A stretch of DNA of 34,917 nucleotides. Origin: a virus. The stretch is taken from positions 1 through 34,917 of IMG/VR virus record IMGVR_UViG_3300000227_000001; one strand, given 5' to 3'. Below are positions 18,885-22,259 of this stretch, piece after piece. Below the pieces are notes generated by a model. The model searched no databases. It saw only the letters and a list, made by a program, of their open reading frames with translations, and was not told the origin of the DNA. Each line of letters starts with the position of its first letter. The stretch's first letter is position 1. Position numbers and translations under genes: made by a program.

Positions 18885-19352
18885 TCAAATCTCCACAAGA
18901 AGTTGCTCCCAGGCCCGTCCGGTGCCTGCCCAGAGCTCCCGAGCCGCCGAGTGCGGGTACTCCTCCACAAAGACGATCCTCTCGCAGCTGGTGTTGAGCA
19001 GCAGCTTGACGCAGGTCATGCACGGGCTGGTCGTCACGTAGCACGTGTGGATGCTGTAGACGTCCTTGCACTGGAGCATAGCGTTCTGCTCAGCGTGGAT
19101 CGCCTGGCAGCCGTCGAGGTTCGTCCCGCTCGGTGAGTTGGCTCCTGAGCAGGCGTGGGGGAACCCCGTCTCGGAGTACGGGTCATGGTGGTTGCAGTGA
19201 GGCAGGCCAGCCGCGACGCCGTTGTACCCGGTGGCCAGCACGTGGCCACGAGCGTTCAGCAGCACGCAGCCAACTGCTCGGCGGCGGCAGGTCGTTCGTT
19301 GGGCAGTCAGCAGGGCCAGTTTCAGGGCCCATTCGTCGCGGCTGGGTCTCAT
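18885..19352 (-). CDS. dCMP deaminase
   Basis: Zinc motifs HAEQNA and SPCMTC are present. ATG at 19352 lies 1 nt after the stop of the upstream ThyA-like gene. The longer track ORF uses an upstream alternative start. Confidence 0.9.
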   Translation of the reverse strand: MRPSRDEWALKLALLTAQRTTCRRRAVGCVLLNARGHVLATGYNGVAAGLPHCNHHDPYSETGFPHACSGANSPSGTNLDGCQAIHAEQNAMLQCKDVYSIHTCYVTTSPCMTCVKLLLNTSCERIVFVEEYPHSAARELWAGTGRAWEQLLVEI

Positions 19353-19353
19353 G

Positions 19354-20139
19354 TTACAGCTCCCACCAACGGCAGGCGTCACCCGGCCGACTGTCACGGA
19401 TCATCTTGAGCTCCGACATCAGGTAGGCCGGGTCGTTCCACAGCAGCTTGGGCGTCTCAACCTGATCGAGCACCTGGCTGGCCAGACACAGCTTCGCGTC
19501 CTCCCAGTTGGTCTCGTACAGGTGGCTACTGGCCGCCGTCAGGAACAGCCTGCCAGGCGACACGGCATCAGCGGCCAGTCGGTGCCCATTCAGCAGGCCG
19601 CAGACGAGGTGGCTCAGCATGCTGAAGTTGAAGACGTCGTAGGGAACGCCCAGCCAGACGTCGCTCGACCGCATGAACACGTGGGCATTGAGCTTGCCGC
19701 CACGGAGGTTGAAGAAGATGGCCACCGTGCAGGGCACGTCCTTCGTCTGGGGCGGGCACTCGCGCCAGATCGTCAGGCCAGCTTGGCGGCTGTTTTCATC
19801 GGCCCGCAGCTTCTCGATGATGTAGGGCAGCTGGGCCACGATCTTGGGGCCGTAGGCGCCGAAAAAGCGCTCGCCGTCGTCGCTGAAGTCCTTGATGCGG
19901 CTGTTGTACGGGGCGATCGTCTCGACCCGGTCGTCACCAGTCAGGATCCAGAAGGCCTCGGCCGCCATGAACTTGTAGCTCAGGCTGCGGTCGGGCACGC
20001 GGAGCACGGGTTTCCGCATGTTCACCACGATGGTGCGCTGCGGAATCTCACGGGTCATCTTGCCGCGCGGTGCCACGAGGTCACCGTTGGTCAAGATGTC
20101 GTTGACGGCCTCAAGCCAAGTGCGTGAAAAGTCTTGCAT
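19354..20139 (-). CDS. Thymidylate-synthase-family enzyme with cytosine-type specificity residue (predicted dCMP hydroxymethylase or dCMP methyltransferase)
   Basis: An aaggag RBS precedes ATG 20139. PCTVAIFFNLRGGKLNAHVFMRSSDVWLGVPYD aligns without gaps to E. coli ThyA PCHAFF...YQRSCDVFLGLPFN and T4 gp42 MCTNTV...NMRSNDVVFGFRND. The catalytic Cys137 codon is at 19729-19731. The residue 31 positions downstream is Asp168 (19636-19638), as in T4 gp42 (C148/D179), not Asn as in ThyA (C146/N177). Confidence 0.8.
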   Translation of the reverse strand: MQDFSRTWLEAVNDILTNGDLVAPRGKMTREIPQRTIVVNMRKPVLRVPDRSLSYKFMAAEAFWILTGDDRVETIAPYNSRIKDFSDDGERFFGAYGPKIVAQLPYIIEKLRADENSRQAGLTIWRECPPQTKDVPCTVAIFFNLRGGKLNAHVFMRSSDVWLGVPYDVFNFSMLSHLVCGLLNGHRLAADAVSPGRLFLTAASSHLYETNWEDAKLCLASQVLDQVETPKLLWNDPAYLMSELKMIRDSRPGDACRWWEL

Positions 20140-20149
20140 GTTGTTCTCC

Positions 20150-21061
20150 TTAGATGAGGTCAAGCAACGGGTAGCGCTGCTTGAAGTTGAAGCGCTTCCA
20201 GGTCTGGGGATGCTGGACCGAAGCGGCTTTGATCTTGAGCTTGTACAGCTGCTGGTAGGCCTCCGTGCCCATGGCAATGATGCGCTCAGGCGCCAGGTCA
20301 TACAGCACGGACAGGTCCTGATCGGAGTTCAGCCAGAGGATGTCGTCCTCGCCAACCTCGATCAGGTCCAGTTGGTCGGCCAACCACTGGCTGCAACCCT
20401 CGTCACTGAACGAGGCGAAGGGCCACTGGTACCAGGGATCGTTGTCCTCGCGCTCAGCAAACGACTCGCCGATCAGCACGATCCGGGCGTCCCAGTTGCC
20501 AGCCGAGGCCAGACCAAGCGGGTGTTGGCGCATACGCAGGCCATCGATCAGCAGAGCCACCTTGTTGACCTCGAACAGGTCGCCCCTCGTGTAGTCGTAG
20601 TCCACCAAGGGCAAGTCCGTCGGCTGCTCAGCATAGAGGTCGTAGACCGTCTTGAGTTGGTACTCGTTGTCCAGCATCTCGATGTGCTTGCGGCTGAGGT
20701 AGTTGGCCTTGACGGTCTCCCAGCTGGGTTGGCACTTGACCACAACAGCGCCGCACCGCATGGCCAGCCGCTCGAGCATCCGGCGGCTGGCCGACGTCAA
20801 GCGATCCTTGCCCTCACGGAACGCGACGCCGTACGGCATCTCACTCAGCCAGCAGCGATCGAAGACCACGTCCTGGTAGCCAAGCAGCGCCGGCATCATG
20901 GCCTCGACGTACATGCGGCCGAGGTTCTTGCCGACGCGAGGCAGCGAGGTGAAGTGCACGTACTTGGCGCCGGTCATCTGGGCGTAGGACTGGGCGGCAG
21001 TCGATTTGCCGCCACCGTCCGGGCCCTCGAAGATCGTCAGCTTGCAGCTCACTTGGTCCAT
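20150..21061 (-). CDS. Fusion protein: N-terminal dNMP-kinase-fold P-loop domain plus C-terminal uracil-DNA-glycosylase-superfamily-like domain
   Basis: The N-terminus has FEGPDGGGKST (thymidylate-kinase-type P-loop) and DRCWLSEMPYG (compare the DRY..S..AY motif). The C-terminus has VLIGESFAE (compare GEAPG), PFAS...G.S.WL and VQHPQ (compare HPS), resembling family-4-like UDG motifs. Confidence 0.7.
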   Translation of the reverse strand: MDQVSCKLTIFEGPDGGGKSTAAQSYAQMTGAKYVHFTSLPRVGKNLGRMYVEAMMPALLGYQDVVFDRCWLSEMPYGVAFREGKDRLTSASRRMLERLAMRCGAVVVKCQPSWETVKANYLSRKHIEMLDNEYQLKTVYDLYAEQPTDLPLVDYDYTRGDLFEVNKVALLIDGLRMRQHPLGLASAGNWDARIVLIGESFAEREDNDPWYQWPFASFSDEGCSQWLADQLDLIEVGEDDILWLNSDQDLSVLYDLAPERIIAMGTEAYQQLYKLKIKAASVQHPQTWKRFNFKQRYPLLDLI

Positions 21062-21447
21062 GACAGAATCTCCTCCAGGCGCGCCTCGGGGCCAGTCCAG
21101 CCTTCCGGCTTCTTGACATCGAAGGCGCTGCCCCGCTTGCTGTCCTCAGCCTTGGCCACACGGACCTTGGCCATGTTGCACGAGTGGACGGCGTCCATGC
21201 CAGCGTGCCACTGAGCTGCATCGATGCCAGCGAACAGCGCCGTGCCGTAGGCTACGTAGACCAGATCCAGCAGAGCGTCGAACACCTTCACGCGGTTGCC
21301 CTCGGCGAGCGCCTCCTTGAGCTCGTCTAGCTCCTCTTGCAAGAACTTGACCCGGAACTCCTGAGCTGCCGGGTCGTTCATGAGTTGATCAACAGCCCCC
21401 ATAGGGAGGCCGAACTTTTCGTGGAACTCAGCGACATTGCCAATCAT
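21049..21447 (-). CDS. MazG/HisE-like all-alpha nucleoside triphosphate pyrophosphohydrolase
   Basis: FHEKFGLP ... FLQEELDELKEA ... DALLDLVYVAYG ... NMAKV matches the phage MazG-like pattern. Its start overlaps the MTase stop (TGATG), and its 3' end overlaps the next gene by 13 nt. Confidence 0.8.
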   Translation of the reverse strand: MIGNVAEFHEKFGLPMGAVDQLMNDPAAQEFRVKFLQEELDELKEALAEGNRVKVFDALLDLVYVAYGTALFAGIDAAQWHAGMDAVHSCNMAKVRVAKAEDSKRGSAFDVKKPEGWTGPEARLEEILSWTK

Positions 21448-22259
21448 CAGAACGGCGCTCCTTTCGTGGTGGTCTTGCGAGCAGGCTTGACCGGCTTGCC
21501 GTCAGCGGCTTTGCGGCAGACCCAGAGGTTGTTGCGAGCATGGTCCTCGTACAGCGGGCCAAAGATGTTGCTGATGGCGTCGTTGTCAAAGTACTGCTCC
21601 AAAGCCTTGCGAATCTCCAGCACAGCCGCCTTGCTGCAGCCGGTGGGGTCGGCCTTGCCGATGTGCTTGATGTCCATGAACGTGCCGAAACGGCGCTCGA
21701 CCACGTAGCCAGCCTTCTCGATGTAGCTCTGCAGCTCAGGCACCGTGTACTCGTGGATGTGGTTGGCCGCGTGGCGCTTGCCATCGTAGACCGGGGTCGA
21801 GAGCAGCAGGACACCGCCCGGCTTGGTGCAGGCGAACATGGCCTTGAGCAGGTTGGCACCGTGCTCGACCTTCATGTGTTCGATGACCTCGTAGTTAACG
21901 ACGACATCCCAACCCTCGGGACGCTTCTTGAGCAACTCCTTGTAGCGCTCGACGAAGTTGAACTCGCCGTGGAACTCCAGACGCTGGTTGTTAGACGGCT
22001 TGAGCTTGTTCAGATCCACGCCGGTGTAGTGGCCAACGTGAGCAGCAGCTCCGCCAGTCAGGATCTTGCTGAGCGGCTTGTCCTCGCCGCAGCCGACCTC
22101 GAGGACGTTGTCCTTGGCCGAGATGAAGCGGCGGGCAAAGCTCCAGCGGAAAAAATGTGCGGAATAATCTCTGTGAAGCGTGCGGCCGTGGCCTGCCTCA
22201 CGTAGCTGGGTGGTGTCGTAGTCGCGGGAGTCGCGTGAAACTTCTTTGGATTTGGCCAT
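21447..22259 (-). CDS. Class I SAM-dependent methyltransferase (small-molecule type; substrate unknown)
   Basis: Motif I VLEVGCGEDK follows HFFRWSFA. The post-II-like motif is VVNYEVIEHM. I saw no DPPY/NPPY or C5-MTase PC/ENV motifs. Confidence 0.8.
   Translation of the reverse strand: MAKSKEVSRDSRDYDTTQLREAGHGRTLHRDYSAHFFRWSFARRFISAKDNVLEVGCGEDKPLSKILTGGAAAHVGHYTGVDLNKLKPSNNQRLEFHGEFNFVERYKELLKKRPEGWDVVVNYEVIEHMKVEHGANLLKAMFACTKPGGVLLLSTPVYDGKRHAANHIHEYTVPELQSYIEKAGYVVERRFGTFMDIKHIGKADPTGCSKAAVLEIRKALEQYFDNDAISNIFGPLYEDHARNNLWVCRKAADGKPVKPARKTTTKGAPF

Follow-up and report, generated by a model that had tools for sequence, protein, structure and literature searches.

A five-gene phage operon predicted to replace cytosine with 5-hydroxymethylcytosine, with a Hen1-related methyltransferase as candidate tailoring enzyme

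The window analysed here is the whole 34,917-nucleotide stretch of the IMG/VR virus record IMGVR_UViG_3300000227_000001, and at the end of its leftward, minus-strand arm lie five tightly packed genes that we read as one pathway for a modified cytosine. In order of transcription, they encode an S-adenosylmethionine (SAM)-dependent methyltransferase of 270 aa (21447-22259; an open reading frame (ORF) with a match to Pfam Methyltransf_23), a 132-aa all-alpha nucleoside triphosphate (NTP) pyrophosphatase of the MazG/HisE type (21049-21447; ORF with a match to Pfam PRA-PH), a 303-aa fusion of a kinase to a domain resembling uracil-DNA glycosylase (UDG) (20150-21061; ORF, AlphaFold2 and Foldseek), a 261-aa ThyA-family enzyme predicted to be a deoxycytidine monophosphate (dCMP) hydroxymethylase (19354-20139), and a 155-aa cytidine deaminase of the dCMP/dCTP type (18885-19352). 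Within the fusion, residues 1-165 form an N-terminal domain of thymidylate-kinase fold (20567-21061), and residues 166-303 plus the stop codon a C-terminal domain of truncated family-4 UDG fold (20150-20566). A preliminary description of the window, made from the letters alone, had proposed a coupled minus-strand operon at these positions, and every junction was exact on re-reading. At the first junction, the stop codon of the methyltransferase gene overlaps the start codon of MazG within TGATG (21449-21445); the MazG and fusion genes overlap by 13 nt, ATGGACCAAGTGA (21061-21049); the fusion and ThyA genes are joined by TAA, 10 nt and ATG (20152-20137); and the ThyA and deaminase genes meet at TAA-c-ATG (19356-19350). 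A GGAG-type ribosome-binding site precedes every one of the five start codons. All five domain assignments made in that description also held in the Pfam, PHROGs, and AlphaFold2 and Foldseek analyses. We conclude that the five genes probably form one late-arm operon that would replace deoxycytidine with a 5-substituted cytosine made at the nucleotide level and before replication, most likely 5-hydroxymethylcytosine (5hmC), which may then be methylated.

Both ends of the window (1-171 and 34747-34917) are occupied by an exact direct repeat of 171 bp, and the window is therefore a complete phage genome of approximately 34.75 kb; the repeat reflects either a terminally redundant genome or a circular assembly. 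The plus strand (609-18773) carries a P22-like structural and lysis module, and the minus strand (34781-18885) carries the replication genes, with those of the operon last. Just past the deaminase stop codon there is an intrinsic-terminator-like hairpin with a U-tract on the minus strand (18802-18846, RNA fold). In the fold of 18795-18885, the hairpin (18846-18809, stem of 10+5 bp) had an energy of -29.5 kcal/mol (z = -4.2, with 0 of 200 shuffles as stable) and was followed by UCUUUUC. With just 4 T among its 8 tail bases, the hairpin at 18846-18802 escaped a consensus terminator scanner. The hairpin and U-tract after the deaminase gene indicate that the leftward transcription unit stops at this point, where it meets the rightward lysis genes tail to tail. 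Upstream of the methyltransferase, a 103-nt intergenic region on the same strand (22260-22362) contains the ribosome-binding site AAGAGG, and a sigma-70 scan of this region detected no promoter. The sole promoter-like site on the minus strand of 18300-23900 is TTTACA-17-TAGAAT at 23842-23814, and such sites were not more numerous than in shuffled sequences. An internal promoter may lie inside the 103-nt spacer.

The same arrangement was found in many related loci. The methyltransferase-anchored set comprised 80 IMG/VR loci, of which 75 were informative, that is, not cut by a contig end; the ThyA homologue lies downstream of the methyltransferase, in the same gene order, in all 75. The same five genes in the same order are present in three GenBank phages, namely Stenotrophomonas phage AXL3 (gp27-31), Pseudoxanthomonas phage PW916 and a Manatee Spring siphovirus, and the cassette also occurs in metagenome contigs (42-67 kb) whose structural modules differ. 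AXL3, which carries all five genes, the fusion included, and PW916 are cultured, published siphoviruses in which these genes are annotated as thymidylate synthesis (AXL3: PMC7504290). The PW916 paper holds no modification data. This recurrence of the gene order in related loci indicates that the arrangement did not arise by chance. As described before, the set does sit in a 35-kb P22-like podovirus; it is not unique to that podovirus, being present in the siphoviruses AXL3 and PW916 as well. Across 65 complete cassettes, the median identity to the window was 75% for the methyltransferase, 68% for the deaminase, 61% for ThyA, 61% for the kinase, 47% for the UDG-like domain and 45% for MazG.

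The pyrophosphatase matched Pfam PRA-PH (PF01503; 3.8e-12, 46.9 bits against a cut-off of 21.3) and phrog_671 (2e-24), and over 90 aa it shares 42% identity with the pyrophosphohydrolase of the 5-methylcytosine (5mC) cluster of phage Xp12. By analogy, it would be a dCTP, and possibly also dUTP, pyrophosphatase and a functional counterpart of T4 gp56. The deaminase matched Pfam dCMP_cyt_deam_1 (PF00383; 1.4e-19, 70.3 bits against a cut-off of 25), phrog_174 (1.1e-35) and the PADLOC dCTP-deaminase model (5.9e-23), and its translation contains the zinc motifs HAE and PCxxC in the form of HAEQNA and SPCMTC. Its presumed role is to supply dUMP for dTTP synthesis, as T4 cd does. A deaminase, a thymidylate synthase (TS) homologue and a PRA-PH protein side by side have been reported as the signature of modified-cytosine contigs (bioRxiv 10.1101/2024.12.05.627091; New England Biolabs preprint). 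The TS homologue of that published signature is of the Asp177 type, as is the window protein described below. In its core, the cassette thus belongs to a class of systems already known.

The ThyA homologue matched Pfam Thymidylat_synt (1.4e-21), and its best solved relative is MilA, a CMP 5-hydroxymethylase (9e-16). It was aligned (alignments A4 and A6, E. coli numbering) with E. coli ThyA, T4 gp42, the Xp12 5-methyl-dCMP synthase and the Sonora protein of the dUMP-hydroxymethylase type. The catalytic Cys, C146, and residues E58, H207 and Y209 are invariant in these alignments, which indicates that the window enzyme should be catalytically competent. At the position of N177 the window protein has Asp (VPYDVFN, against LPFNIAS in E. 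coli and FRNDYAW in T4), and this Asp177 is invariant in eight cassette-type ThyA homologues. The cytosine-type specificity residue that had been noted in this protein was thus confirmed by comparison with E. coli ThyA and T4 gp42. Asp instead of Asn at position 177 specifies a cytosine rather than a uracil substrate (PMC13326640, PMC5175136). The position of L143 is also Asp in the window (KDVPC), as in T4 gp42 (SDFMC) and MilA (IDVAC), and the corresponding segments are ALAPC in E. coli and KNVPC in Xp12. An acidic residue at this position admits water and leads to a hydroxymethyl, not a methyl, product (PMC13326640). The reference enzymes in the same alignments behave as these residue rules predict, and we counted this in favour of a hydroxymethylase: the residues at 143/177 are D/D in T4 gp42 and MilA and L/N in E. 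coli ThyA, the Sonora protein has Asp at 143 and Asn at 177, and Xp12 has Asn at 143. From the specificity positions, we predict that the ThyA homologue acts as a dCMP hydroxymethylase and makes 5-hydroxymethyl-dCMP (5-hm-dCMP).

Two other activities were ruled out for this enzyme. The 5-hydroxy-dCMP synthase of the RB69 gp48 type has Asn in place of Asp169 (PMC13326640), and D169 is kept in the window protein and in all cassette homologues. A ribonucleotide (CMP) substrate was raised by the best PDB match, MilA; that enzyme, which prefers CMP, has Ala and Lys at the 167 and 126 positions (PMC5175136), and the window protein keeps S167 and R126 (RSSD, NSRQ).

In the pathway that we propose, the MazG-type pyrophosphatase would convert dCTP to dCMP, which would both keep plain dCTP from the phage polymerase and feed the subsequent steps, by analogy with T4 gp56 and the Xp12 cluster. 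The ThyA homologue would then convert dCMP and methylene-tetrahydrofolate to 5-hm-dCMP, as predicted from five specificity positions. The thymidylate-kinase-like domain would phosphorylate 5-hm-dCMP, with the nucleoside diphosphate kinase of the host completing the triphosphate, and the deaminase would divert part of the dCMP pool to dUMP for dTTP production via the host thymidylate synthase. These are the same four nucleotide-level functions that operate in the T4 5hmC pathway (gp56 dCTPase, gp42 dCMP hydroxymethylase, gp1 deoxynucleoside monophosphate (dNMP) kinase and cd deaminase). T4 gp42 and the window ThyA homologue share Asp177 and Asp143, and both would replace the base before replication. 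The two systems differ in that their proteins are non-orthologous: the window kinase resembles thymidylate kinase (TMPK) and not gp1, and the window ThyA homologue is closer to MilA than to gp42. They also differ in that all window genes are in one coupled operon of a 35-kb P22-like podovirus. T4 has alpha- and beta-glucosyltransferases, whereas Pfam scans of the larger window ORFs found no glycosyltransferase, in agreement with the preliminary description, and the SAM methyltransferase stands as the candidate tailoring enzyme. The earlier reading of a T4-style modified-cytosine logic plus two extra activities is borne out in its core. We hold with good confidence that the core is a T4-like replacement of deoxycytidine by 5-hydroxymethyldeoxycytidine (5-hm-dC), carried out by non-orthologous proteins.

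The methyltransferase matched Pfam Methyltransf_23 at 1.7e-14. Its best NCBIfam match was bacter_Hen1 (TIGR04074; 1.5e-8), with 33.6 bits against a cut-off of 340 and covering only model positions 284-450 of 462. In the PDB profile search, the Hen1 structures 3jwg and 3jwi came first (5e-5), ahead of juvenile-hormone acid O-methyltransferase and UbiG. Alignment to the 3jwg chain by hhalign gave 97.3% probability and 35% identity over 127 columns, with EVIEHM paired with EVIEHL and NHIHEYT with DHRFEWT. The metal ligands of HEN1 are Glu796, Glu799, His800 and His860 (bioRxiv 10.1101/2023.05.22.541725); they align with E124, E127, H128 and H167 of the methyltransferase, all of which are invariant in family alignment A3, where the mean column identity is 72%. 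The catalytic domain is therefore homologous to that of Hen1 (PDB 3jwg; plant HEN1), with the ExxEH and (D/N)H metal-ligand positions conserved. By the same profile comparisons, the protein is nevertheless not a Hen1 family member: it is without the bacterial Hen1 N-terminal part, it scores far under the cut-off, and no Pnkp appeared in the Pfam scans. PADLOC also matched the methyltransferase to mad2 of the MADS defence system (3.6e-8), which is probably a generic methyltransferase-domain similarity.

The methyltransferase family was searched exhaustively among 1.84 billion representatives, clustered at 50% identity, and 1429 relatives were obtained at E <= 1e-3, 120 of them at E <= 1e-30. 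At least 22 of the best 150 relatives are fused, in either order, to a C5-cytosine DNA methylase-like domain (PF00145); these fusion proteins include P0249, P0253, P0260, P0265, P0266, P0300, P0302, P0315, P0317, P0338 and others. Among the same 150 relatives there is a single fusion to a MazG domain (P0287) and a single fusion to a dCMP deaminase (P0334), the latter matching the window deaminase at 3e-47. The fusions to C5-methylase-like, MazG and deaminase domains tie the methyltransferase to cytosine chemistry and argue against a role at RNA ends. The fused C5-methylase-like domains keep the catalytic PPC and carry PC-A/S in place of PCQ and ESV in place of ENV, a signature that may correspond to an enlarged pocket. 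Three of the fusions carry an intein/LAGLIDADG insertion directly after the catalytic Cys. In seven loci (L081, L082, L084, L085, L087, L088 and L092), a C5-methylase-like protein is encoded by a separate gene between the methyltransferase and MazG genes.

We also examined loci from the ThyA side. The ThyA-anchored set contained 67 loci with enough upstream sequence, and the methyltransferase was present in 55 and absent from 12 of them. All 12 methyltransferase-free loci keep MazG, the ThyA homologue and the deaminase, and 10 have a kinase. Four of the 12 contain a three-gene set that encodes proteins of ~296 aa and ~375 aa and an enzyme of the PALP family that depends on pyridoxal phosphate (PLP). 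This set is directly upstream of MazG, the usual place of the methyltransferase, in L147, L148 and L159, and downstream of the deaminase in L171; it is also found in L170, a shorter locus outside the 67. An HtrL_YibB-like gene is present in five of the 12 (L166-L169, L172), and a C5-methylase-like gene adjoins the ThyA homologue in one (L149). Neither the PLP set nor the HtrL_YibB-like gene was found in any of the 80 methyltransferase loci. These methyltransferase-free cassettes suggest that a number of other 5hmC derivatives exist that are still uncharacterised. Among hypermodified cytosines, it is an established pattern that the core making 5hmC is conserved and the tailoring enzyme next to it varies, as with the T4 glucosyltransferases and the MetaGPA carbamoyltransferase. 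A separate observation concerns the jumbo Bacillus phage G (L009, gp313-gp319), where an alpha-glucosyltransferase, a kinase-UDG-like protein (gp315), a deaminase (gp317) and a ThyA homologue with Asp177 and Asp143 (gp319) are encoded in one cluster; this gene content predicts that phage G DNA would contain glucosylated 5hmC.

The constant linkage to ThyA, the conservation, the fusions and the alternative genes together lead us to conclude that the methyltransferase is probably a tailoring enzyme of the pathway. The preliminary description had set it, along with the UDG-like domain, outside the T4-like set. Two extra activities are indeed present, but the methyltransferase is not an unlinked extra, because no other member of the cassette is as well conserved and it stands beside ThyA in all 75 informative loci. 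The enzymes that adjoin it in genomes or are fused to it act on deoxycytidine or on cytosine in DNA, which sets it apart from Hen1, and its substrate almost certainly differs from that of Hen1.

The alternative that survives best, though we consider it unlikely, retains the 5hmC core and assigns to the methyltransferase a true Hen1-like function as an RNA 3'-end ribose 2'-O-methyltransferase. Such an enzyme could, for instance, shield tRNA or another RNA against nucleases of the host, or its target could be a nucleotide immune signal, and its adjacency to the cassette would result from shared descent of the replication module. That Hen1 is the closest solved relative in the hhalign, PDB profile and NCBIfam comparisons and that its four metal ligands are conserved is consistent with this possibility, as is the median identity of 75%, which is unusually high, as would be expected for a universal cellular target. 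Moreover, a 44%-identical homologue is present in an integrated element (L180 5848-7686, on a 635-kb contig of a proteobacterial metagenome-assembled genome (MAG)), where its neighbours are an integrase, a helix-turn-helix protein and a D5_N/DUF3854 primase, and no ThyA cassette lies within 6 kb of it. The scan of bacterial genomes yielded only phage-sized MAG contigs and this one integrated element. An RNA-end function is disfavoured by the missing N-terminal part of bacterial Hen1 and the score of 33.6 bits against 340, and Pfam scans of the larger ORFs of the complete genome found neither Pnkp nor an RNA ligase. It also leaves aside the repeated fusions to C5-cytosine methylase-like domains, the MazG and dCMP deaminase fusions, the company of the ThyA homologue in 75 of 75 loci, and the presence of other candidate tailoring genes when the methyltransferase is absent, at the same spot upstream of MazG in L147, L148 and L159. 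These observations favour the tailoring role.

Less likely still is a 5mC pathway of the Xp12 type. On this reading, the ThyA homologue would act as a dCMP methylase and the deaminase would turn 5-methyl-dCTP into dTTP, with the methyltransferase serving some unrelated purpose. The resemblance to the 5mC phages Xp12 and PaMx74 is real: the triad of deaminase, Asp177 TS homologue and PRA-PH protein is adjacent there too, the MazG proteins are homologous (the 42% identity given above), the related phages infect Xanthomonadaceae, and five of seven such TS homologues made 5mdCMP (bioRxiv 10.1101/2024.12.05.627091). The Xp12 cluster differs in having Asn at the L143 position, where the window has Asp like T4 gp42 and MilA, in having an adjacent dihydrofolate reductase (DHFR) gene, and in being without a Methyltransf_23 gene and without a kinase-UDG gene; in addition, the window ThyA homologue is less than 30% identical to the TS homologues of the Xp12 group. 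A 5-methyl-dCMP synthase would be recognised by a non-acidic residue at 143 together with a linked DHFR. The window has Asp143, and tblastn found no second thymidylate synthase in the complete genome and, with the Xp12 DHFR as query, no DHFR. A hydroxymethylase regenerates tetrahydrofolate and needs no DHFR. The absence of both genes from the complete genome is in line with a hydroxymethylase, whereas Xp12 has an adjacent DHFR.

The published restriction data for AXL3 bear on the same question. AXL3 DNA was not cut by 35 of 37 restriction enzymes, the two cutters have A/T-only sites, and the modification was left unexplained (PMC7504290). KpnI and AhdI (Eam1105I) fully cut the 5mC DNA of Xp12 (PMC7653180), and neither of them cuts the DNA of the cassette-bearing AXL3 (PMC7504290). 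On 5hmC-containing T4gt DNA, KpnI, AhdI, EcoRI, MspI and AccI fail, and XbaI and XmnI cut partially (supplement); XbaI and PdmI (XmnI) fail on AXL3 DNA (PMC7504290). The comparison with Xp12 and T4gt therefore excludes plain 5mC in AXL3 and fits 5hmC or a bulkier base. The contrast between AXL3 and T4gt for XbaI and XmnI is weak, because the digests came from different laboratories and conditions. The outcome that the proposed pathway would have, DNA resistant to restriction at every G/C-containing site, corresponds to what was measured for AXL3. The preliminary description had left 5mC, 5hmC or a derivative as the final base; 5mC is now disfavoured by Asp143, the missing DHFR and the KpnI/AhdI resistance of AXL3, and the 5hmC chemistry is favoured.

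The kinase-UDG fusion was characterised mainly by structure prediction. At the sequence level, the fusion gave only weak kinase matches and phrog_761 'thymidylate kinase' (7e-16, residues 7-166); Pfam Thymidylate_kin scored 14.4 bits, under the cut-off, and the NCBIfam score was also under its cut-off. The AlphaFold2 model of the whole fusion, built with 43 homologues, had a predicted local distance difference test (pLDDT) value of 89, and Foldseek matched it only to kinases, with YorR (3kb2) and thymidylate kinases at the top (E ~1e-6, probability 1.0). Across 43 homologues, the kinase domain shows no variation in its P-loop, GPDGGGKST, or in the D68-R69 motif. The scores below the Pfam and NCBIfam cut-offs, despite the fold and the motifs, mark the kinase as a divergent member of the thymidylate/dNMP kinases, and within the pathway we infer that it would act as a 5-hm-dCMP kinase. 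The C-terminal domain had no match in Pfam, in PDB phmmer and profile searches or in PHROGs, and its UDG fold was resolved only by AlphaFold2 and Foldseek on the isolated domain. The model of residues 168-303 alone (pLDDT 82) matched the family-4 UDGs 1l9g, 1ui0 and 1vk2 as well as UdgX in the PDB (E 2e-5 to 1e-3, probability 1.0, template modelling (TM) score ~0.6), and its matches in BFVD were fusion homologues, gp315 of Bacillus phage G and the UDG-like domains of phage DNA polymerases. The check by structure prediction and Foldseek that had been suggested for the cassette proteins was run on this one and confirmed both folds, a dNMP-kinase fold of the TMPK type joined to a UDG-superfamily-like domain (E = 2e-5, probability 1.0).

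The UDG motifs were mapped by motif order and sequence and not by residue-level structural superposition. P214-F215 and the motif-B residues H284-P285 (HPQ, against HP(S/A) in family-4 UDGs) are invariant, and N245 is kept in 40 of 43 homologues. The domain has in common with family-4 UDGs and polymerase-fused UDG domains the fold, the HPx of motif B, the stacking Phe and the base-reading Asn. Motif A, which is GE(A/Q)PG in family-4 UDGs, reads GE(S/A)F(A/G) in the window family, with Phe for Pro, and its Glu is not invariant (E199 is Glu in 31/43 and acidic in 38/43). The domain is also shorter (~135 aa against ~190) and is without the four Fe-S cysteines, one invariant Cys (C223) being present in its 136 aa. 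From these residues, the domain appears to keep a pyrimidine-type pocket without a strictly conserved catalytic acid, and its activity as a glycosylase is uncertain. The most economical guess is that it probably binds, flips or senses uracil-type bases or tethers the kinase to DNA. Phage replication proteins frequently carry UDG-fold domains, whether active or not (bioRxiv 10.1101/2025.03.26.645540), which provides a precedent for attachment to a phage replication or nucleotide enzyme; a partnership with a dNMP kinase was not found described.

The slot between MazG and ThyA is variable. In the 75 informative loci, it contains either the kinase, which is found in 48 loci and is accompanied by a detectable UDG-like domain in 39 of these, or an unrelated, conserved protein of ~125 aa (27 loci: L013, L015-L017, L019-L020, L027-L034, L036-L037, L044, L046-L047, L051, L056, L067, L071-L073, L075 and L077), and never both; even very close relatives of the window differ in this respect. 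The ~125-aa protein has the motifs GGHPGALA, KSxDYN, YFPFG and DIINYAGF and corresponds to the C-terminal half of phrog_18404, the N-terminal half of which is a MazG domain. The kinase-UDG fusion is an optional accessory of the cassette.

This optional character also bears on the possibility that the fusion carries out a post-replication hypermodification, in which the kinase would phosphorylate 5hmC in DNA and the UDG fold would flip the base or transfer a group. We regard this as very unlikely. The union of a kinase with a fold that flips bases does suggest it, the UDG-like domain conserves its pocket residues (PF, N, HP), and PLP enzymes occur in some related cassettes, as they do in thymidine-hypermodification clusters. 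The kinase, however, is nearest to thymidylate/dNMP kinases and has the TMPK P-loop and DR motif, neither half of the fusion has a Pfam match to the aGPT-Pplase or 5-HMUDK families, and the solved aGPT-type enzyme PUGT is helical, unlike UDG (PMC11472151). Furthermore, 27 of 75 cassettes that keep the methyltransferase swap the fusion for the unrelated 125-aa MazG partner domain. The replacement of the fusion, the TMPK-like kinase and the helical aGPT-type fold argue against the analogy to 5-hmdU DNA kinase and aGPT-pyrophosphorylase that was drawn in the preliminary description, and we reject it. The thymidine-hypermodification systems (M6, ViI, PaMx11, Sonora) resemble the cassette in combining a ThyA-family hydroxymethylase with variable tailoring genes. 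They differ in the base, which is cytosine in the window (Asp177, where Sonora has Asn), and the window has no aGPT-Pplase by Pfam and an optional, TMPK-like kinase.

Ordinary thymidylate salvage with canonical DNA, in which the deaminase would make dUMP, ThyA dTMP and the kinase dTDP, is how the databases and the AXL3 and PW916 papers name these genes, and it is highly improbable given that Asp replaces the uracil-specifying Asn177 in every cassette member, that AXL3 DNA resists all 35 enzymes with G/C in their sites (PMC7504290), and that AXL3 has a separate ThyX for dTMP.

With the 5hmC core retained, the remaining question concerns what the methyltransferase would add to it. Besides the 3'-OH of free nucleotides, the sole hydroxyl on 5-hm-dC is the 5-CH2OH group. 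If the methyltransferase is an O-methyltransferase like its relatives, it would methylate the 5-CH2OH oxygen, on DNA or on the nucleotide, and the product would be 5-methoxymethylcytosine. By analogy with those relatives, we suggest, as a realistic but tentative proposal, that the methyltransferase step would methylate the new base, most likely giving 5-methoxymethylcytosine. In the literature searched, nothing relevant was found on methoxymethylcytosine or O-methylated 5hmC in a phage or as a natural base. Methylated 5hmC is the leading candidate for the final base, albeit a somewhat doubtful one. The broader statement, that the phages with this cassette (AXL3, PW916 and more than 100 environmental contigs) replace every cytosine with methylated 5hmC, likeliest 5-methoxymethylcytosine, by means of a Hen1-derived O-methyltransferase, is similarly speculative.

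Several observations weigh against this interpretation. With respect to the methyltransferase, Hen1 acts on the 2',3'-diol of ribose, which DNA lacks, and the class I fold leaves the acceptor atom unfixed, so that N4- or N3-methylation is possible. The fused C5-methylase-like partner would make 5mC, which is without a hydroxyl, and the chemistry shared by these proteins may therefore differ from O-methylation. Cassettes without the methyltransferase account for 12 of the 67 ThyA-anchored loci, so the enzyme is not essential for the core pathway, and the homologue in the integrated element mentioned above stands apart from any ThyA cassette. With respect to the core, the residue rules that distinguish methyl from hydroxymethyl products are correlations from few characterised enzymes, and the AXL3 restriction data cannot separate 5hmC from a derivative with confidence. 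Finally, the 27 of 75 cassettes in which the slot protein replaces the fusion have no kinase anywhere in the locus, and phosphorylation of 5-hm-dCMP may therefore fall to host or distant enzymes.

A tailoring enzyme paired with a dCMP hydroxymethylase has a precedent in 5-carbamoyloxymethylcytosine, identified by MetaGPA, where a 5hmdC core is likewise accompanied by a neighbouring enzyme that decorates the hydroxyl (PMC8670742). That enzyme is a carbamoyltransferase, whereas the window has a SAM methyltransferase and the product here is a predicted one; the text of the MetaGPA paper makes no mention of a methyltransferase or kinase of the window type (PMC8670742). We consider the present system a new form of an established type because of its tightly linked Hen1-derived methyltransferase and its kinase-UDG fusion, neither of which was found described.

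Complete replacement of cytosine is a major route by which phages escape restriction enzymes and CRISPR nucleases, and earlier cytosine derivatives have yielded tools such as glucosyltransferases, 5mC-selective deaminases and carbamoyltransferases. The interpretation given here turns a five-gene set labelled as thymidylate synthesis into a specific modified-cytosine pathway, one that would account for the resistance to restriction, so far unexplained, of AXL3, a candidate phage for therapy. The interpretation also draws attention to a highly conserved methyltransferase family that is connected with cytosine chemistry by its neighbourhood, its domain fusions and the alternative tailoring genes. 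If 5-methoxymethylcytosine is the product, it would be a new natural DNA base, and the enzyme could serve to block or label 5hmC. The fusions of C5-methylase-like domains to the methyltransferase, with their PC-A/S and ESV signatures, would then be a sign that enzymes modifying cytosine in two steps form a wider family, as yet unexplored.

The remainder of the genome is that of a P22-like podovirus, as had been stated at the outset. The rightward module encodes a P22 coat protein (1.2e-90 in the Pfam scan of the window ORFs), the gp7 ejection protein, a gp10-like protein and a P22-like portal, and the tailspike carries the P22 head-binding domain. The replication arm encodes a DUF3854/DUF5906 primase-helicase, a family-A DNA polymerase, a PD-(D/E)XK nuclease, an Rv2179c-like exonuclease, a VRR-NUC protein and a SNF2 helicase. 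Palindrome avoidance, taken as an indirect sign of cytosine protection, was uninformative except for the missing GTCGAC (SalI site), which is absent from the window, where a Markov model predicts ~13 copies (z = -3.6); TCGA and AGCT occur in excess, and CTAG is under-represented.

Some further proteins of the window deserve mention. In the P22-like ejection block, a 285-aa protein (10851-11708, plus strand) has a C-terminal match to the SET domain, the fold of lysine methyltransferases (Pfam 4e-5; 24.4 bits, cut-off 22.4), which would be an unusual cargo if the protein is injected. Two proteins encoded just upstream of the methyltransferase on the minus strand (22363-23016 and 23369-23770) had no Pfam match. 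The former contains a Lys/Ala/Pro-rich, histone-H1-like repeat, and the two share a similar C-terminal domain of ~45 aa (…WYRxxxKKxG). In the fusion proteins, a segment resembling this domain lies between the C5-methylase-like part and the methyltransferase part, the only significant match being to P0266 (6e-6).

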